NCBI GenBank assembly: GCA_009693905.1 | Contig: SHWG01000001.1 | Coordinates: 2,682 to 66,681 of the forward strand | Length of the DNA stretch: 64,000 bases | DNA from: Rhodospirillales bacterium | GTDB lineage: Bacteria; Pseudomonadota; Alphaproteobacteria; Rhodospirillales; 2-12-FULL-67-15 | Direction of reading: 5' to 3' | Shown here: one piece after another, positions 6,636 through 42,698 of the stretch | Layout: each line of letters starts with the position of its first letter | Numbering within the stretch: position 1 is the first letter of the stretch | Translations under genes and position numbers: made by a program | Notes under the pieces: generated by a model | Database searches by the model: none | What the model saw: the letters and a program-made list of their open reading frames with translations, nothing else | What the model was told of the DNA's origin: nothing

Positions 6636-7490
6636 ATGGACCGAAAACGCTTTCAGGGCACCGATACCTTCATCGCGACCGAGGATTTGCGAATCGCGGT
6701 CAACGCCGCGGTCGCGCTCGAGCGGCCGCTCTTGATCAAGGGCGAGCCCGGCACCGGCAAGACGGTGCTGGCGCACGAGATCGCCCGTGCGCTCGAAGCG
6801 CCGCTGATCGCCTGGCACATCAAGTCCACGACCAAGGCGCAACACGGGCTTTACGAATACGACGCGGTGGCGCGTCTGCGCGATTCCCAGCTCGGCGACG
6901 CGCGGATCCACGACATCCGCAACTACATCCTCAAGGGCAAGCTCTGGCACGCTTTCGAGTCGGCGGCGCGCCCGGTGCTGCTGATCGACGAAATCGACAA
7001 AGCCGACATCGAGTTCCCCAACGACCTGTTGCTCGAACTCGACAAAATGGAGTTTCACGTCTACGAGACCGGTGAAATGGTGCGCGCCCGGCTGCGCCCG
7101 GTGATCGTCATCACCTCCAACAACGAAAAGGAACTGCCCGACGCGTTCCTGCGCCGCTGCTTCTTCCACTACATCAGCTTTCCCGACCGCGAGACCATGG
7201 CGCGGATTGTGGATGTCCACTTCCCCGGCATCCAGAAGCGCCTGGTGCGCGAGGCCTTGACCCTGTTTTACGAAGTGCGCGAGGTGCCCGGGCTCAAAAA
7301 ACGCCCTTCGACCTCGGAGCTGTTGGATTGGCTCAAGCTGCTGCTGGTCGAGGGAATCCCGCCCGAGGCGCTGCGCGCGTCCGACCGACGCTCGCTGATT
7401 CCGCCCTTGCACGGCGCGCTCTTAAAGAACGAACAAGACGTGCAGCTATTCGAGCGCCTCGCCTTCATCAACCGGCGCGAGGAACGTTAA
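6636..7490 (+). CDS. MoxR-family AAA+ ATPase
   Basis: Walker A GEPGTGKT, Walker B LLIDEIDKA, then ITSNNEKELPDAFLRRC. ATG at 6636 lies 7 nt after ggcggag; the frame opens at a TTG at 6630 overlapping the alaS stop. Confidence 0.85.
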   Translation: MDRKRFQGTDTFIATEDLRIAVNAAVALERPLLIKGEPGTGKTVLAHEIARALEAPLIAWHIKSTTKAQHGLYEYDAVARLRDSQLGDARIHDIRNYILKGKLWHAFESAARPVLLIDEIDKADIEFPNDLLLELDKMEFHVYETGEMVRARLRPVIVITSNNEKELPDAFLRRCFFHYISFPDRETMARIVDVHFPGIQKRLVREALTLFYEVREVPGLKKRPSTSELLDWLKLLLVEGIPPEALRASDRRSLIPPLHGALLKNEQDVQLFERLAFINRREER

Positions 7491-8720: not shown

Positions 8721-9254
8721 TTACTGGAACAGCTTGTCGATTTCGTCCTGGGTGGCGCCCCGGCCCTCGAGTTGCGGCCCGGCGAGCAGCTTTTCGTCGG
8801 CGGTCTTTTCCCGGTCGGGCTTGACGTCGATCTTTTCCAGCTCGTCGCGGTCCCAGACGCTGATCAGAACGCTGATGTGCTTCTCGACGTAGGCCAGCGA
8901 CTTGGCGACCTTGTTGATGCGCTGGCCGGTGATGTCCTGGAAGGTGCAGGCCTCGAACACCGCCGCCGCGTTGTCGGAAATCTTGTCGAGCTTGGCGGCG
9001 AGCGCCTTGTCCGGGATTCCCTTCTTGACCTCGGCGACGATGTTGTCGTTTTCCTCCATCGCCCCCATGATCGTGTTGGTCGCCGCCGCGGTCGCCTTGA
9101 CGATGGCGTCGAGCTGCTCGGAGATGCTGCCAAAGCTGTGATCGGTCTCGGCCGGCTTGTGCAGCGCGGCGATCTCCTGGCGCACGCGCTGAATGTACTG
9201 AAAGAGCCCGATGAGCTCGGTCTTCAGGACCTTGATTTCGGCTTCGCTCGTCAT
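8721..9254 (-). CDS. CheZ-like protein phosphatase
   Basis: Helical protein with ACTFQDITGQRINKV, matching the CheZ catalytic-Gln motif (QD.TGQ). ATG at 9254 is preceded by gggagggg. Confidence 0.65.
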   Translation of the reverse strand: MTSEAEIKVLKTELIGLFQYIQRVRQEIAALHKPAETDHSFGSISEQLDAIVKATAAATNTIMGAMEENDNIVAEVKKGIPDKALAAKLDKISDNAAAVFEACTFQDITGQRINKVAKSLAYVEKHISVLISVWDRDELEKIDVKPDREKTADEKLLAGPQLEGRGATQDEIDKLFQ

Positions 9255-9383
9255 CGAACCCCTCCCGGACGCGGCTTTTGAGTACCGCGTCGGCGGGCAC
9301 AATGTTGGGTGGGCCGAAAGCCTTTGTCAAACCGGGGATTTTCCCTAACGCCCCGGAGCGCACCCCCAGGAACAAAGGGGATT

Positions 9384-9832: not shown

Positions 9833-9905
9833 TAAAGGTGCCGCCTCCGGCGACAGCGGGATTTCCAGGTTCACCCGCTTCTCGGAGGAGCATCGCATGG
9901 CATGG

Positions 9906-9921
9906 TTAACGATGGGTTAAC
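9906..9921. promoter_or_regulatory. Perfect CtrA-type box TTAA-N7-TTAAC
   Basis: ttaa cgatggg ttaac (also reads GTTAA-N7-TTAAC). Lies 63 nt upstream of the pyk ATG, in the divergent intergenic region. Confidence 0.45.
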
Positions 9922-9983: not shown

Positions 9984-11399
9984 ATGCGACGCCGCCGCAA
10001 CGCCAAGATCATCGCCACCGTCGGCCCGGCCTGCTCGACCGAGGTCATGTTGGCCAAGCTGTTCGAGGCCGGGGCCGACGTTTTTCGCCTCAATTTCAGC
10101 CACGGCAATCACGAGGACCACAAAACCCGCTACGACATCATCCGCGGCCTCGATGCGCGGTTCGGCCGCCCGATTGGGATTCTTCTCGACTTGCAAGGGC
10201 CCAAACTCCGGGTCGGCGAATTCAAGGGCGGTCGGGCGTTGCTGGTGGCGGGGCGAAAATTCCGTCTCGATCTCAACCCGGGCTTGGGCGATCAGGACCG
10301 CGCGCCCCTGCCGCACCCCGAGGTCTTCCGCTCGCTCGCGCCGGGAACCGATCTGCTTCTCGATGACGGCCGCCTGCGGCTCAAGGTTGGCAAATGCGGC
10401 ACCGACTTCGCCGAGACCGAGGTGATAGTTGGCGGCGAGCTTTCCGATCACAAGGGGCTGAACGTTCCGAGCGCGGTGCTCGATGTTTCCTCGCTGACGC
10501 GCAAGGATATCGAGGATCTGAACTATGGGCTCGAGCTCGGCGTGGACTGGGTCGCGCTTTCCTTCGTGCAGCGGGCCGAGGACGTCGCCGAGGCGCGCCG
10601 GCTGATCGCGGATCGCGCCGGAATCATGACCAAGCTGGAAAAACCGGCCGCGATCGAACACTTGGACGAGATCGTGGCGCTCTCCGACGCGGTGATGGTC
10701 GCGCGCGGCGACCTTGGCGTCGAGTTGCCGCCCGAGGACGTGCCCGGAATCCAAAAGCGCATCATCCGCGCCTGCCGCCAGGCGGGCAAGCCGGTGGTGG
10801 TGGCGACGCAGATGCTCGATTCCATGGTCCACTCGCCGACGCCGACGCGGGCCGAGGCCTCCGACGTCGCGACCGCGGTTTACGACGGCGCCGACGCGGT
10901 GATGCTCTCGGCGGAGACGGCGGTCGGCGAATACCCGACCGAATCCATCTCCATGATGGATCGGATCATCTATCGGGTCGAACGCGATCCGCTCTATCGC
11001 AAGATCATGGAGACCGAGCATCACGACCCCGAGGCGACCGCGGCGGACGCCATCACCGCCGCCGCGCGGCAGGTGGCGAAGACCATCTCGGCGGCGGCCA
11101 TCGTCACCTTCAGCTCGACCGGTTCGACCACGCTCCGCTGCGCGCGCGAGCGCCCGAGCGTGCCGATCCTCGGCCTGACGCCGCGCGCCGCCACGGCGCG
11201 CCGCCTGGCGCTCGCCTGGGGAGTCCACTCGGTCCAAGTCGAAGACCTACACAGCTTCAGCGAGATGGTGACCAAGGCCGTCGCCGCAGCTTCGCACGAA
11301 GGCTTCGCCAGGACTGGCGAGAAAATCGTGGTGACCGCAGGCCTTCCTTTCGGCACGCCCGGCGCCACCAATATCCTGCGCATCGCGCTGGTGCAGTAA
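9984..11399 (+). CDS. pyk: Pyruvate kinase
   Basis: KIIATVGPA, FRLNFSHG, MVARGDLGVE, ATQMLDSM. Confidence 0.95.
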   Translation: MRRRRNAKIIATVGPACSTEVMLAKLFEAGADVFRLNFSHGNHEDHKTRYDIIRGLDARFGRPIGILLDLQGPKLRVGEFKGGRALLVAGRKFRLDLNPGLGDQDRAPLPHPEVFRSLAPGTDLLLDDGRLRLKVGKCGTDFAETEVIVGGELSDHKGLNVPSAVLDVSSLTRKDIEDLNYGLELGVDWVALSFVQRAEDVAEARRLIADRAGIMTKLEKPAAIEHLDEIVALSDAVMVARGDLGVELPPEDVPGIQKRIIRACRQAGKPVVVATQMLDSMVHSPTPTRAEASDVATAVYDGADAVMLSAETAVGEYPTESISMMDRIIYRVERDPLYRKIMETEHHDPEATAADAITAAARQVAKTISAAAIVTFSSTGSTTLRCARERPSVPILGLTPRAATARRLALAWGVHSVQVEDLHSFSEMVTKAVAAASHEGFARTGEKIVVTAGLPFGTPGATNILRIALVQ

Positions 11400-37897: not shown

Positions 37898-38602
37898 TTA
37901 GGAGACGCGCTCGCCCGAATTGGCCGGCGCGGCCGGTGCCGGCTCGGCAGGTTCCGTTGGGGCGGGGAGCGGCGGCGGGGCGGCAGCGGCCTGAGTGGCG
38001 GCTTGGGCGGCGGCGATCTCCGCCGCGTCGTGGGCCGCGGCCTGCTGGGCGATTTTGTCCGCGCGGGCGAGCGCATTGCGCGCGCGGGTGCGGGCCAACG
38101 TGATCGCTTTCTCGAGATCGGCGCTGGAACAAAGCCCGAGGTTGACCGGGTTCTGCGGCTTGATGTTGGGCGAGTTCCAGTGCGACCGGTCGCGCACCGC
38201 GGCGATGGTCGTCTTGGTGGTGCCGAGCAGGCGCGAAATCTGGCCGTCGCCCAGCTCCGGATAATTCTTCAAAAGCCAGGCGATGGTGTCGGGGCGCTCC
38301 TGGCGCTTGGCGACCGGGGTGTAGCGCGCGCCGGTGGGCCGGGCCTTGGGCTGCGGAATGGTCGGCTTCAAGGCTTTGAGGCGCGTGTTCGGGTTCTTCT
38401 GGCAACGCGCGACCTCTTCCAGCGTCAGATCGCCCGCGGCGAGGGGATTGGTCCCGTGCATGCCGCCGGCGACCTCGCCGTCGGCGATGGCCTGAACCTC
38501 GAGCGGATGCAGGCCGCAATAATCGGCGACCTGGTCGAAGGTGAGCGACGTGTTTTCGACGAGCCAAACGGCCGTGGCCTTTGGCATCAGGGGGCGTGCC
38601 AT
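37898..38602 (-). CDS. DUF1013-domain protein (alphaproteobacterial TrcR-type putative cell-cycle regulator)
   Basis: MARPLMPKATAVWLVENTSLTFDQVADYCGLHPLEVQAIADGEVA.. plus an Ala/Pro-rich tail. ATG at 38602. Confidence 0.8.
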   Translation of the reverse strand: MARPLMPKATAVWLVENTSLTFDQVADYCGLHPLEVQAIADGEVAGGMHGTNPLAAGDLTLEEVARCQKNPNTRLKALKPTIPQPKARPTGARYTPVAKRQERPDTIAWLLKNYPELGDGQISRLLGTTKTTIAAVRDRSHWNSPNIKPQNPVNLGLCSSADLEKAITLARTRARNALARADKIAQQAAAHDAAEIAAAQAATQAAAAPPPLPAPTEPAEPAPAAPANSGERVS

Positions 38603-38730: not shown

Positions 38731-39723
38731 TCACGTTGTGAGGATGATCTTGCCGATGTGCGCGTTGCTTTCCATCAGCCGGTGCGCGTCGGCGGCCCGC
38801 TCGAGCGGGAAGGTGGCGTGGATGACGGGGCGGATATCCCCCGCCTCGATCAGCGGCCAGATGGTCGTACGCAGCGCCTCAGCGATGCGGCCCTTGCTCG
38901 CTGTGCTCTGGATGCGCAGCGTCGAGCCGGTGTAGGTGAGCCTTTTCAGCATGAGCGGCATGAAGTTGACCTCGGCCTTCGCGCCTTTCTGGAATCCGAT
39001 CTGGACGAGCCGGCCCTCCGGCGCGAGAGCGCGGATGTTGCGCTCGATGTAGTCGGCGCCGACCATGTCCAGGATCACGTCGACGCCGCGGCCGCCGGTC
39101 AGTTCCTTGACCGCCTCGACGAAATCCGTGGCGCGGTAGTTGATCGCCGAGGCGGCGCCGAGGCGCTCGCAGGCGGTGCACTTTTCGGCGCTGCCGGCGG
39201 TGGCGAAAACCCGGGCGCCAAGCCGGCTCGCCATTTGAATCGCGCTTGTGCCGATGCCGCTCGAGCCGCCGTGAACCAACAGAGTCTCGCCCGCCACGAG
39301 CCGGCCGCGCTCGAAAACGTTGGTCCAGACGGTGAAGAATGTCTCAGGCAGGCCGGCGGCCTCGACCGGCGACAAACCCTTGGGGATCGGCAGGCATTGC
39401 GGCGCGGGCGCGGCCACGTACTCGGCGTATCCGCCGCCCGAGACCAGCGCGCATACCGGATCGCCGACGTTCCAGGCGCCGGCCCCGGCGCCCAGGGCGG
39501 CGACGGTGCCCGCGACCTCGAGGCCGGGAATATCGCTCGCCCCCGCGGGCGGCGGATAGCCGCCCTGGCGCTGCAACACGTCGGGACGATTGACCCCGGC
39601 CGCGCCGACCCGGATCAGAATCTCGCCGTCGCCCGCGGCGGGGCGGGGACGGGTCGTTGCTTTGAGCACCTCGGGCGGGCCGCCCTTGCCTGCAATTTCG
39701 ACGCAGCGCATGGTTTCGGTCAT
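38731..39723 (-). CDS. qor: NAD(P)H:quinone oxidoreductase (zinc-independent MDR, PIG3/Qor type)
   Basis: GVNRPDVLQRQGGYPPP, VHGGSSGIGT. Confidence 0.88.
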   Translation of the reverse strand: MTETMRCVEIAGKGGPPEVLKATTRPRPAAGDGEILIRVGAAGVNRPDVLQRQGGYPPPAGASDIPGLEVAGTVAALGAGAGAWNVGDPVCALVSGGGYAEYVAAPAPQCLPIPKGLSPVEAAGLPETFFTVWTNVFERGRLVAGETLLVHGGSSGIGTSAIQMASRLGARVFATAGSAEKCTACERLGAASAINYRATDFVEAVKELTGGRGVDVILDMVGADYIERNIRALAPEGRLVQIGFQKGAKAEVNFMPLMLKRLTYTGSTLRIQSTASKGRIAEALRTTIWPLIEAGDIRPVIHATFPLERAADAHRLMESNAHIGKIILTT

Positions 39724-39799: not shown

Positions 39800-39985
39800 A
39801 TGGACCCGGAAGACCTGGAACCGCGCGCGCGGAAGCCCGCGCCGAAGAACCTCGACGAGATGTCGGTGGCGGCGATCGAGGAATACATCGCCGGGATCGA
39901 GGCGGAAATAGCGCGGGCGCGGGCGGCCATTGCCGCCAAGCGATCCTTCCGTCAGGGCGCCGAGACGTTTTTCAAGAAGAAGTAG
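39800..39985 (+). CDS. DUF1192 small protein
   Basis: NLDEMSVAAIEEYIAGIEAEIARARAAIAAK; 61 aa. Confidence 0.7.
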   Translation: MDPEDLEPRARKPAPKNLDEMSVAAIEEYIAGIEAEIARARAAIAAKRSFRQGAETFFKKK

Positions 39986-40038: not shown

Positions 40039-40332
40039 CTAGAGTCGCCGCCTCCGGCGTCGCGCGGCGATGAACATCAGCCAGCCCGCGAACGGCAGGA
40101 ACGTCACCACGATCAGCCAGCCGAGCCGGGGTCCGAACGGGCAACGCGCGCCCGGAACCGCCTTCCAGCCGCCCCCACCCGGCGGCGCAGGCCGCCCAGA
40201 CATAAGACCGGGCGCGGAAAGTTCCGCCGGGTCTTTGGTTTTAGGCGCTTGCGCGCCCGGGGCGAACACGACATGCGTCGCCGGCAGGACGATGCCGAAG
40301 ATCAGAACGGCCCAGGCGATCAATTGGTCCAT
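40039..40332 (-). CDS. Small two-TM membrane protein, PLDc_N-like, with a ~31-aa insert
   Basis: WAVLIFGIVLPATHVV..[insert]..RLGWLIVVTFLPFAGWLMFIAARRRRR resembles the PLD-nuclease N-terminal domain pattern. The central APGAQAPKTKDPAELSAPGLMSGRPAPPGGG is encoded by the dispersed repeat. Confidence 0.5.
   Translation of the reverse strand: MDQLIAWAVLIFGIVLPATHVVFAPGAQAPKTKDPAELSAPGLMSGRPAPPGGGGWKAVPGARCPFGPRLGWLIVVTFLPFAGWLMFIAARRRRRRL
40173..40263. repeat. ~90-bp dispersed repeat copy lying inside the small membrane-protein ORF
   Basis: cccggcggcgcaggccgccca..gggtctttggttttaggcgcttgcgcgccc aligns with 16726-16818 (cccggcggcgcaggtcgccca..gggtctttgggtttaggcgcttgcgcgccc). Confidence 0.55.
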
Positions 40333-40375
40333 GGCGGGGGTCCGGAAAAGCTCGAGTTTGGGCGGGGGGCGCCCG

Positions 40376-40391
40376 TTAAGCCTAATTTAAC
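40376..40391. promoter_or_regulatory. Perfect CtrA-type box TTAA-N7-TTAAC
   Basis: ttaa gcctaat ttaac (also reads GTTAA-N7-TTAAC), 44 nt upstream of the divergent membrane-protein ATG and about 70 nt upstream of an orphan terminator. Confidence 0.45.
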
Positions 40392-40409
40392 GGATGGGCT
40401 TTATACAGG

Positions 40410-40488
40410 GCAGCAGGATGACAATGTTCATCCCGTCAATTAGACGCCTCCCTGTCAACTCGCCGCCCCGCAAGGGGCGGCTTTTTTT
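40410..40488 (+). ncRNA. Candidate small RNA (5' end approximate)
   Basis: CtrA-type box, then hairpin ggatga-caatgt-tcatcc, then single-stranded gacgCCTCCCtgtcaac, then a strong terminator. No ORF ends before the terminator; the next + strand gene is 200 nt away. Confidence 0.3.
40462..40488 (+). terminator. Orphan Rho-independent terminator
   Basis: gccgcccc-gcaa-ggggcggc followed by seven T. Confidence 0.7.
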
Positions 40489-40691
40489 GGCTTTTCAGCG
40501 GGTTCCCCGAGCCATCCCGCAAGGGCCGGGGATGGCCCTTGCGCGACCGGACCCGCCGCGCCTAGAGTTTGCCCGTGTTTGGGTCGAGGCGAGTTCGACA
40601 GGGACGAAGCTTTACCAACAAAAGGGCCGCCGGGTTCAAGGCGGCCCTAACTGTTTCCGGCGGAGGCGACGGCCGCCAGCGCGAGAATCGC

Positions 40692-41171
40692 ATGAAAGCG
40701 AAACGGCAAGGCAAGACGACCGCGAAACCCTCCGCCAACCCGGCCCCGGAAACCCGCGCGCGCTATCCCCATTTCATGCCGCTGCAAACGCGCTGGGCCG
40801 ACAACGACGTCTACGGCCACGTCAACAACGTGACCTACTACGCCTACTTCGACACGATCATCAATTGCTACCTGATCGAGAAGGGCGGGCTCGACATCGC
40901 GGGCGGCGACGTGATCGGCTTCGCGGTCGAAACCATGTGCCGCTACCTGAAGCCGCTCGCCTATCCCGACGCGCTCGACGCCGGCCTCAGGGTCGGGCAC
41001 CTCGGCAATTCGAGCGTGCGCTACGAAGTCGGTATATTTCGTCGGGGCGAGAACGAAGTTGCCGCCGCCGGCCACTTCGTCCACGTGTTCGTGGATCGCC
41101 GCACCGGCCGGCCGGTGGCGCTGCCGCCGGTTCTCCGCCGCGCGTTGGAACGAATCCGGGTTCAGACCTGA
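40692..41171 (+). CDS. Acyl-CoA thioesterase, 4HBT/YbgC-like hotdog fold
   Basis: [21 protein letters not shown]; 159 aa from the ATG at 40692. Confidence 0.82.
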
Positions 41172-41180
41172 GTTGCGCCC

Positions 41181-42698
41181 CTACCGTGGCGCGACGGCCG
41201 GGCGGGCCGCGGCCACCGCGGGACGCGGCGCTGGCGCCGGGGCGGCGGCGGGGCGGTGCGCGGCGGCGGTGCGCTCGGCTTTTTGGCGGGCGGACACATC
41301 CTCGTCCCACACAACCTCGTAGAGAGTGATGTCGCCGTCGAAGCCCTTCATGGCATAGCCGCCGCGATTGACGAATTTGTAATTCTTGCCGGCACACACC
41401 ATGCGCACCGAATCGGGCACGAAGATTTCGTTGGCCTTGGCCTTGTCGGTGATGCGCGCGGAGAGCTGCACGGTCGAACCGAACAGGTCGCCGTCCTCGG
41501 CGATGGGCTCGCCTGTATTCAGGCCGATCTTCAATTGGAGCGGCAGATCGGGGTAATCGCGGCAGTGGGCGGTGGTGTCCTTCTGAATCTGGATCGACGC
41601 TTCCACCGCGCCGGAAGCCTGGGCGAAGGACGCCATGATGCCGTCGCCGGTGTGCTTGATTTCGCGGCCGTTGAAGCGCGTCAGGGCCTGGCGAACGATG
41701 CGGTTGTGGGCGCGGACCACTTGCTGGGCCACCTGCTGGCCGCGCTCCTGGGTGAGTGCGGTCGAGCCGACCATGTCGGTGAACATGACGGTGATGACCT
41801 GGGATTGCTCCTCCTTCGGCTTCGGTTTCGACCAGTCGCCGATGGCGGCGGTGAGGTGCTTCAAGCCCTCGCCCTCGTCGGAGAAATAGGTGTTCATGGC
41901 GTTGCGGCCGGCCTGGAACATTTGCATGTAGCGCGCGTCCTGGAGGAGATAGCTTTCGTAGTTTCCGGCGAAGCCGAGCGCGTGATCGGGCTTGAAGCCG
42001 AGCGCCTGGACGGCGTCGCCGAGAATCCGGGTTTTCGCCATCGTGTCGAGATCTCTTTTCTGGGAAAGGATTTCGCACGCGCCGGCGAGGAACAGGTTGA
42101 GGCCGAACTTGGTGTAGCTGTCGAGCTTCTTGTGGGTGGTGGAAACCTGCTCCAGCGTGCGCCCCAAAAAGCGGAGGATGTAGGTCTTCTGCTTTTCGAC
42201 GTGCGGATTGAGCGGCGCGCCGCCGGTTTCCGCCGGCGCGGCCGCGGCTTCGGCGGGCGCGGCTCCGGCCTCGGCTTCGGCCATCGGCGATTCCTGGGCT
42301 TCCTTGGCCGCGTGATCCTGGAGAATTTCGGCCGCCGCCTCGCGCAGTTTCCGGGCGAGATCGTCGGGCGTGGGCTCGGGCCCTTCCTGCGGCATTTCCA
42401 CTTCGCTCGGCGCCGGCCGGGCGATCGGTTTCTTGGCCGGCTTCGGCTTGGCTCCGAACGCGGGCATTTCCTTTTGGTGCTCGGGGACGGCGATGCCCTT
42501 GCCGCCGAGCAGGATGGACGATGTGAACCCGGCGACCACCAGGAACGAGAGGACGAAGACGCCAAAGTAGAAGTTGTCGCCCGCATGCCCGACCACCGAA
42601 ATTCCCATGAAGGTCGGACCGGTGATGAACTGGCTGAGACCGAAGGCGGATCCCATCCCTCCGATGGCGCCGACGATCAGCACCGCCAGCAGCCGCAA
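41181..42698 (-). CDS. Membrane-anchored class III adenylate/guanylate cyclase
   Basis: N-terminal TM segments and an Ala/Pro/Glu-rich linker. Cyclase core VMFTDMVGSTAL..KHTGDGIMASF..KIGLNTGEP..GSTVQLSARI. Confidence 0.85.
   Translation of the reverse strand: MRLLAVLIVGAIGGMGSAFGLSQFITGPTFMGISVVGHAGDNFYFGVFVLSFLVVAGFTSSILLGGKGIAVPEHQKEMPAFGAKPKPAKKPIARPAPSEVEMPQEGPEPTPDDLARKLREAAAEILQDHAAKEAQESPMAEAEAGAAPAEAAAAPAETGGAPLNPHVEKQKTYILRFLGRTLEQVSTTHKKLDSYTKFGLNLFLAGACEILSQKRDLDTMAKTRILGDAVQALGFKPDHALGFAGNYESYLLQDARYMQMFQAGRNAMNTYFSDEGEGLKHLTAAIGDWSKPKPKEEQSQVITVMFTDMVGSTALTQERGQQVAQQVVRAHNRIVRQALTRFNGREIKHTGDGIMASFAQASGAVEASIQIQKDTTAHCRDYPDLPLQLKIGLNTGEPIAEDGDLFGSTVQLSARITDKAKANEIFVPDSVRMVCAGKNYKFVNRGGYAMKGFDGDITLYEVVWDEDVSARQKAERTAAAHRPAAAPAPAPRPAVAAARPAVAPR

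Follow-up and report, generated by a model that had tools for sequence, protein, structure and literature searches.

The small RNA family BjrC1505 (Rfam RF02356) was first described in Bradyrhizobium japonicum, where Madhugiri et al. reportedly obtained Northern evidence for it in 2012. Northern blots have also confirmed that it is expressed in Methylorubrum extorquens. The sole target proposed for it, acetolactate synthase, is a prediction, and in the literature searched we found no regulator or mechanism assigned to the family. A short 5′ hairpin, a CCUCCCU anti-Shine-Dalgarno stretch, and a terminator make up another described RNA, MmgR/suhB (RF00519, alpha-r8), and MmgR is under nitrogen-related control (NtrC/AniA). 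RNAs that act as sponges or derive from attenuators are also established, among them rnTrpL of S. meliloti and the enterobacterial SroC and 3′ETS-leuZ. In Caulobacter crescentus, the 182-nt RNA CcnA (CCNA_R0094) is encoded at the replication origin, its locus carrying DnaA and CtrA boxes, and pairs through a CCCC loop with G-rich ribosome-binding regions (PMC8959179); a homolog in S. meliloti was not clearly found by its authors (PMC8959179). Six non-coding RNAs with CtrA motifs are listed for Caulobacter, where full CtrA motifs have their 5′ base around −35, with ctrA P2 (−39) as an example (PMC4287350).

Here, we analyzed a candidate small RNA in a 64,000-nt stretch of DNA (the window) from a Rhodospirillales-type MAG. 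Judged by sequence, this RNA is a divergent short-form ortholog of BjrC1505 and not a new class. The two share the core hairpin GACG-CCUCCC-UGUY, a terminator directly after it, the qor neighborhood, the geometry of box and −10 hexamer, and an end-to-end alignment to the family model. However, described BjrC1505 RNAs have two 5′ hairpins and Hyphomicrobiales hosts, whereas the window RNA has a single hairpin, and its clade carries a cis-encoded complementary leader that is missing from canonical BjrC1505 loci. CcnA resembles the window RNA in the CtrA box of its promoter and in its C-rich loop (CCCC, compared with CCUCCC here), but its described locus and size set it apart: the window RNA has a predicted length of about 75 nt, shares no synteny with CcnA, and has qor, DUF1192, a membrane ORF, and a thioesterase gene as neighbors instead of the replication origin. 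MmgR/suhB follows the same plan as the window RNA but differs in flanking genes and promoter, and the window scores only 18.6 bits (E = 0.26) against RF00519, which has a 41-bit cut-off. One relative (L145) gives a weak match to SorX (29.5 bits); both this match and that to MmgR/suhB reflect a common layout in which a C-rich stretch lies between a hairpin and a terminator.

The element and the BjrC1505 family

The element lies in the 360-nt gap between the membrane ORF and the thioesterase gene. Its parts are as follows.

40376–40390, plus strand: CtrA-type full box TTAA-N7-TTAA, TTAAGCCTAATTTAA
40402–40407, plus strand: putative −10-like hexamer TATACA, 11 nt past the box
about 40414–40488, plus strand: predicted small RNA of about 75 nt, from promoter geometry, fold z score, and a sub-threshold RF02356 match
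40416–40433, plus strand: 5′ stem-loop GGAUGA-CAAUGU-UCAUCC, arms at 40416–40421 and 40428–40433
40443–40464, plus strand: seed region GACGCCUCCCUGUCAACUCGCC, holding the anti-Shine-Dalgarno CCUCCC at 40447–40452
40462–40488, plus strand: intrinsic terminator, stem at 40462–40481 with eight G-C pairs and a GCAA loop, T7 at 40482–40488

The genes around it are the following.

37898–38602, minus strand: PF06242 TrcR (“transcriptional cell cycle regulator”) gene
38731–39723, minus strand: qor (gene call on the source contig)
39800–39985, plus strand: DUF1192 gene (gene call on the source contig)
40039–40332, minus strand: 97-aa membrane ORF, divergent from the small RNA
40692–41171, plus strand: 4HBT thioesterase gene, the next gene on the same strand

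An earlier note on this DNA had read the element as a small RNA of 70–80 nt, and the box, hairpin, CCTCCC, and terminator all lie where it had placed them. Positions 40413–40488 fold at −31.1 kcal/mol, compared with −18.2 ± 3.0 kcal/mol for shuffled sequences (z = −4.3), and 40376–40488 is very probably the gene of an approximately 75-nt regulatory RNA. Its 5′ end would fall at 40413–40415 and its 3′ end within the U-run; a start near 40414 agrees with the length proposed before. The gene calls in the window also bear out the described surroundings: no real gene ends 5′ of the terminator, the 97-aa ORF on the minus strand is divergent, and the thioesterase gene begins on the plus strand at 40692. 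The membrane ORF itself (70–78 aa in relatives) has no Pfam family, is specific to the window’s clade, and has 15 homologs among 5.8 billion proteins.

At Rfam gathering thresholds, the window gave no match. A permissive scan of 40200–40800 recovered RF02356 over 40371–40487, spanning model positions 1–140, with 32.9 bits (E = 1.9e-4), below the 50-bit gathering cut-off. The core GACG-CCUCCC-UGUC is identical to the RF02356 consensus, the terminator follows it directly, and the seed columns are invariant in 99 aligned homologs among the matches listed. The two canonical 5′ stem-loops (GUCC/AUCCAG and GAGUGG...CCACUC) are absent from the window, where the single hairpin at 40416–40433 stands in their place, and the cmscan alignment skips 16 model positions. 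The distance from box to core is correspondingly 50 nt in the window compared with 62–70 nt in canonical members, since one 5′ hairpin is present instead of two.

Scanning for the exact core TNGACGCCTCCCTGTNA in one genome per species returned at least 120 loci. Among the matches listed, 109 including the window carry a terminator hairpin after the core, and these come almost entirely from Hyphomicrobiales together with a few Rhodospirillales-type MAGs; the 12 listed matches without a terminator, from unrelated phyla, look like chance matches in coding sequence. Eight representative loci exceed the Rfam cut-off as BjrC1505 (54.6–129 bits), from Bradyrhizobium, Stappia, Microvirga, Parvibaculum, Mesorhizobium, Brucella (formerly Ochrobactrum), Devosia, and one uncultured alphaproteobacterium. 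None of the 10 Rhodospirillales-type loci passes it; the window version is thus part of a branch below the threshold, which database pipelines would leave unannotated. In a Microvirga MAG (L083), a 6S RNA gene (7189–7345, 83 bits) lies ∼2.7 kb from the BjrC1505 homolog, probably by coincidence.

Gene order points the same way. With the window proteins as tblastn queries, qor was found inside the 8-kb locus of at least 66 homologs, often together with trcR, and DUF1192 was found in the closest homolog loci. Further relatives were collected by way of qor in metagenomes and by way of 97-aa ORF homologs and their contigs. They form a graded series with the clade order trcR, qor, DUF1192, membrane ORF, small RNA, (leader), operon, and cyclase. 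The alignment with the nearest relative (L124), whose qor is 85% identical, extends over DUF1192, the membrane ORF, the small RNA, and the downstream leader. The module can be lost: another relative (L211, 2380–2520) has neither the small RNA nor the leader, and its membrane ORF directly adjoins a MerR-thioredoxin pair. Taken together, it is highly likely that 40376–40488 is a small RNA gene of the BjrC1505 lineage. The small RNA reading of the earlier note is thereby tied to a Northern-confirmed family, which that note missed, as it did the complementary partner site downstream.

Promoter and CtrA-type box

The sequence TTAAGCCTAATTTAAC occupies 40376–40391, and with the flanking bases G40375 and C40391, the box becomes the palindrome GTTAA-N7-TTAAC. 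TTAA-N7-TTAAC occurs at two sites in the 64-kb window compared with 0.01 expected from shuffles, which argues against a chance match. Among the matches listed, 105 homologs have enough upstream sequence, and TTAA-N7-TTAA with at most one mismatch is present in 103 of them (perfect in 50 and with one mismatch in 53), nearly always 62–70 nt before the core. The background in the rest of the same loci is 0.016% for a perfect box and 0.5% for one mismatch per 130-nt stretch. The box that the earlier note had singled out thus holds a fixed promoter position across the listed homologs and is perfect in every close relative.

We built a promoter profile from 99 homologs among the matches listed, anchored on the box. 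Conservation begins sharply at the box, with information near zero upstream of it, and the pattern reads TT(A/T)AC-N6-TTAAG, an 11-nt spacer, a −10-like hexamer, about 7 unconserved nucleotides, and then the first RNA hairpin. The 11-nt spacing from box to hexamer is the same in every homolog. The hexamer is CATTAC, TATGAC, or TATTAC in canonical members and TAGTTT, TACCTT, TACTTT, or TAGCGT (TAnnnT) in short forms; that of the window, TATACA, is weak. Every locus of the window’s clade has a perfect box, with a varying 7-nt spacer (GCCTAAT, GCCTTAT, TCCATTT, TGCGCTG, AACAAAA, and others). Half-sites that are fixed around a free spacer indicate a protein site rather than RNA structure.

Applied to the window box, the −39 placement of ctrA P2 would make 40415 the start, one base ahead of the hairpin. 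Conversely, the 5′ base of the box fits −35 to −39 if the start is at 40414–40415, a position that is itself inferred, with the hairpin about 7–8 nt past the hexamer. This geometry would match that of CtrA-activated Caulobacter promoters and suggests that CtrA would bind here. We regard control of the small RNA by CtrA as reasonably probable.

The RNA could be real and yet owe nothing to CtrA, its TTAA repeats being bound by TrcR or another OmpR-family protein or being merely AT-rich or UP-like, in which case there would be neither a CtrA site nor cell-cycle control. Small RNA genes often adjoin their regulators, and trcR is syntenic with the small RNA in many loci. Moreover, the Bradyrhizobiaceae box, TTTAC-N7-TTAAG, departs from the consensus by one mismatch in its first half-site. 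Against this stands the motif itself, which is the exact CtrA full consensus, with fixed half-sites, a free 7-nt spacer, and the position expected of a CtrA promoter. Conservation of the box also spans two or more orders whose members are known to read this motif with CtrA (e.g., Methylosinus). A promoter independent of CtrA is therefore an unlikely reading, and the CtrA-type promoter is preferred.

Several observations border on this promoter. The palindromic box lies 44 nt upstream of the membrane ORF’s start codon, with no −10-like hexamer past the box on the minus strand. The trcR gene stays linked to qor and the small RNA in many loci; in the window, it has no CtrA-type box upstream, and one preprint names trcR as a putative CtrA target. 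The window holds just one further perfect TTAA-N7-TTAAC (GTTAACGATGGGTTAAC, 9905–9921), likewise palindromic, in the gap between the pyruvate kinase gene (start at 9984, plus strand) and a minus-strand unassigned ORF that is followed by a CheZ-like phosphatase (8721–9302); it is 63–78 nt upstream of the pyk start codon. We found no report linking a CtrA motif to BjrC1505 in the literature searched, the family’s 2012 description lying outside that search. The family-wide CtrA-type promoter is accordingly a lead for which we found no earlier description.

RNA structure and 5′ boundary

Because the column alignments were out of structural register, helix pairs were counted by script. In canonical members among the matches listed, the closing pair of hairpin 1 is G-C in 52, A-U in 34, G-U in 4, and A-C in 1 (Fisher p = 2e-19, a value that overstates independence, since the sequences are related). 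Hairpin 2 has the compensatory variants GAGUGG/CCACUC, GGACGG/CCGUC, and AGUAGA/UCUACU. Among the short-form RNAs, the single 5′ helix is kept in nine of nine, as GGAUGA/UCAUCC in the window and as GGGAUGA/UCAUCCC, GGGACG/CGUCCC, GGGAUGG/CCGUCCC, or GGAUGGU/ACCAUCC elsewhere; one position passes from U-A to C-G through a U·G intermediate, and another changes from A-U to G-C. An alignment register giving four compensatory pairs between the window and L124 was dropped for a more parsimonious one with two covarying positions. Across the family, the terminator stem is kept, and its inner pairs covary to some extent. When 99 homologs among the matches listed were aligned with MAFFT and folded with RNAalifold, only the anti-Shine-Dalgarno hairpin and the terminator emerged, the 5′ part being misaligned.

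All versions fold as a 5′ domain and a terminator, with CCUCCC between them in a weak hairpin or an open stretch (z scores of −3.8 to −5.8). In L068 and L126, the same outer stem (GGAUGAGGC...GUCUCAUCC) encloses an inserted inner hairpin, and the 5′ hairpin of the window looks like a deletion derivative of this larger domain. The search of relatives that the earlier note had suggested thus finds the layout of box, hairpin, and terminator conserved, with compensatory changes in the 5′ hairpin. The CCUCCC stretch that it had described is likewise present. However, it is not simply single-stranded, as had been thought: across the BjrC1505 family, it is displayed in the loop of a short GACG/UGUC hairpin. 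A frame containing AUG within the small RNA was considered as a small ORF and rejected, as it has no stop and is not conserved.

Where the RNA begins bears on what the box is. The 140-nt RF02356 model starts on the upstream side of the box; should this boundary derive from a mapped 5′ end, the box would be part of the transcript and not of the promoter. The RNA would in that case have the Rfam boundaries (∼117–140 nt, from about 40371), the TTAA repeats would form a 5′ RNA domain, and the promoter would lie further upstream. Model positions 1–44 do align to 40371–40412 of the window, that is, to the box and −10 region, and in one homolog (L030), the match to positions 1–44 (7380–7423) begins 44 nt before the predicted start. 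Nevertheless, conservation upstream of the box is close to zero, the changes seen around the box are not complementary, several pairs in the window part aligned to these positions are flagged as non-canonical by cmscan, and covariation begins only at the first hairpin past the −10. An RNA with the Rfam boundaries is therefore extremely improbable. Since conservation starts at the box and covariation past the −10, positions 1–44 of RF02356 are probably promoter DNA rather than RNA, consistent with the shorter transcript starting near 40414. Published data sets did not bear on the point: the Methylosinus TSS supplements contain neither the box motif nor the core, BjrC1505 has no entry in the parts searched of the dRNA-seq and sORF supplements for B. 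japonicum, and the M. extorquens preprint gives no size for BjrC1505.

The leader of the neighboring operon and a proposed mechanism

Downstream of the small RNA terminator, three further features precede the thioesterase gene.

40538–40566, plus strand: putative sigma-70-like promoter of the leader (CTTGCG at 40538–40543, 17 nt, CCTAGA at 40561–40566)
40588–40604, plus strand: anti-seed GGCGAGUUCGACAGGGA, complementary to 40450–40464 of the small RNA with one bulged C
40623–40648: G+C-rich leader hairpin after an A-rich stretch, terminator-like on both strands

The anti-seed, GGCGAGTTCGACAGGGA (40588–40604), lies ∼100 nt past the small RNA terminator on the same strand and is the complement of CCCUGUC-AACUCGCC with a bulged C. 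The same layout is found in 14 Rhodospirillales-type loci (the window, L124, L125, L126, L145, L068, L199, L112, L204/205, L206, L208/209, and L210), with a complementary site of 16–25 nt in the leader. In the 13 other loci, CTTGAC or CTTGCC, a spacer of 17–18 nt, and a −10-like hexamer stand at a constant distance before the anti-seed. The predicted duplex of seed and anti-seed in the window has −35.7 kcal/mol compared with −20.3 ± 3.6 for shuffled sequences; across the 14 loci, predicted duplexes range from −31 to −46 kcal/mol against −14 to −21 (SD ∼3.4) for shuffled sequences, placing them 4–7 SD below. Canonical family members have no comparable complement anywhere in their 8-kb loci, and two loci (L212 and L061) keep the small RNA where the leader element is absent.

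Two types of seed and anti-seed covary: CUGUUAAACUCGCC pairs with GGCGAGUUUAACAG, and CUGUC-AACUCGCC pairs with GGCGAGUUCGACAG. The change is from U-A to C-G in one column, with U·G intermediates in L125 and L145, and the covariation amounts to one or two columns in related sequences. The bulged base of the anti-seed varies freely (C, or A in L205), and a distal GAGGC:GCCUC pairing is present in most leader loci. On balance, we lean slightly toward the anti-seed being a genuine pairing partner of the small RNA.

The next gene’s start codon follows the hairpin by 20–45 nt in L210, L208, L199, L124, and L204, too close for a further promoter to fit between them, and we thus read the element as the 5′ leader of the operon. 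This operon always ends in the thioesterase, while its first gene varies: the 4HBT thioesterase may stand alone, follow an alpha/beta hydrolase, or follow a Cys/Met PLP enzyme and the hydrolase, so that it is the sole or last gene. The U-run of the leader hairpin is good on the small RNA strand in L145, L124, L126, and L199, and in L145, the hairpin was called as a terminator (12-bp stem, U7). For the window, the minus strand has the better U-run. RNAfold of the leader alone gave the formed hairpin and no obvious antiterminator.

We considered and rejected three other identities for this region. A second small RNA on the minus strand (40617–40723) had weak Rfam matches, and relatives do not conserve what precedes the hairpin in that orientation. 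A degenerate inverted paralog of the small RNA would have no promoter or terminator that way round, yet the leader is conserved at 61–85% qor identity. Lastly, a small ORF or type I toxin would need a start codon past the anti-seed, which resembles a Shine-Dalgarno sequence, and there is none.

Two further observations concern the surroundings. Between the small RNA terminator and the leader promoter, a G+C-rich hairpin (CCATCCCGCAAGGGCC / GGCCCTTGCG...) at 40510–40555 extends over the −35; it resembles RsmW weakly (24.2 bits) and is unconserved in relatives. At the other end of the operon, the thioesterase gene (plus strand) and an adenylate/guanylate cyclase gene (minus strand) converge at 41171–41181, with ∼9 nt between their stop codons and no terminator. 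Given its better U-run on the minus strand, the leader hairpin might also halt antisense read-through from the cyclase gene.

The element could instead be the start of one long thioesterase leader or attenuator, in which read-through transcripts pair seed and anti-seed intramolecularly. A same-strand operon does lie downstream, a conserved complementary sequence follows at 63–210 nt, and the operon leader has its own terminator-like hairpin. However, the small RNA terminator is strong (eight G-C pairs and U7), and a separate sigma-70-like promoter is conserved between the small RNA and the anti-seed. Moreover, canonical members lack the anti-seed and have unrelated genes downstream, and L212 and L061 have the small RNA without the leader element. 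We therefore consider a single long leader very unlikely and retain a separate small RNA that may act on the operon’s leader.

A short-form BjrC1505 ortholog with a CtrA-box promoter, encoding a trans-acting RNA of about 75 nt with a partner in the neighboring leader, is in our view a likely explanation of the whole locus. The TTAA-N7-TTAA box over the −35 region and the −10-like hexamer would start transcription at about 40414, and phosphorylated CtrA would activate this promoter. The resulting ∼75-nt RNA would consist of the 5′ hairpin, an exposed C-rich seed, and the strong intrinsic terminator, and its anti-Shine-Dalgarno seed would pair in trans with G-rich ribosome-binding regions of mRNAs. 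In the window’s clade, a further pairing would take place in the thioesterase operon’s leader, immediately before the terminator-like hairpin. Such pairing would couple expression of the operon to CtrA activity or titrate the small RNA: termination or stability of the operon mRNA may be altered, a terminated leader may titrate the small RNA, or the read-through transcript may fold on itself. As with known sponges and attenuator-derived RNAs, a short terminated leader complementary to a trans-acting small RNA could titrate it or be regulated by it; in contrast to them, the candidate partner here lies directly downstream of the small RNA gene, on the same strand, in an operon leader. The interpretation offered by the earlier note is supported as a whole, CtrA dependence and cell-cycle timing being the parts of it that we infer.

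The conserved complementary leader in the neighboring operon is, like the promoter, a lead without an earlier description that we could find. We also entertain, as a doubtful extension, that membership of the BjrC1505 lineage in the CtrA regulon is ancient and common to Hyphomicrobiales and Rhodospirillales, and that the lineage is a functional counterpart of CcnA in groups for which searches gave no CcnA homolog, with a clade-specific module of small RNA and anti-seed leader. The lineage is a candidate for the CcnA-like activity sought outside Caulobacterales. Short forms are missed by Rfam annotation, and the range of BjrC1505 is wider than databases show. The CtrA-type box at the promoter across more than 100 species provides a direct, testable regulator hypothesis for this widespread RNA; if it is true, an anti-Shine-Dalgarno small RNA joins the conserved cell-cycle and motility regulon. 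The seed and anti-seed pair next to the gene is a natural target ready for experiments on how the small RNA acts. If the pairing is genuine, a CtrA-timed small RNA would switch the thioesterase operon, or the terminated leader would serve as a sponge that sharpens the small RNA pulse.
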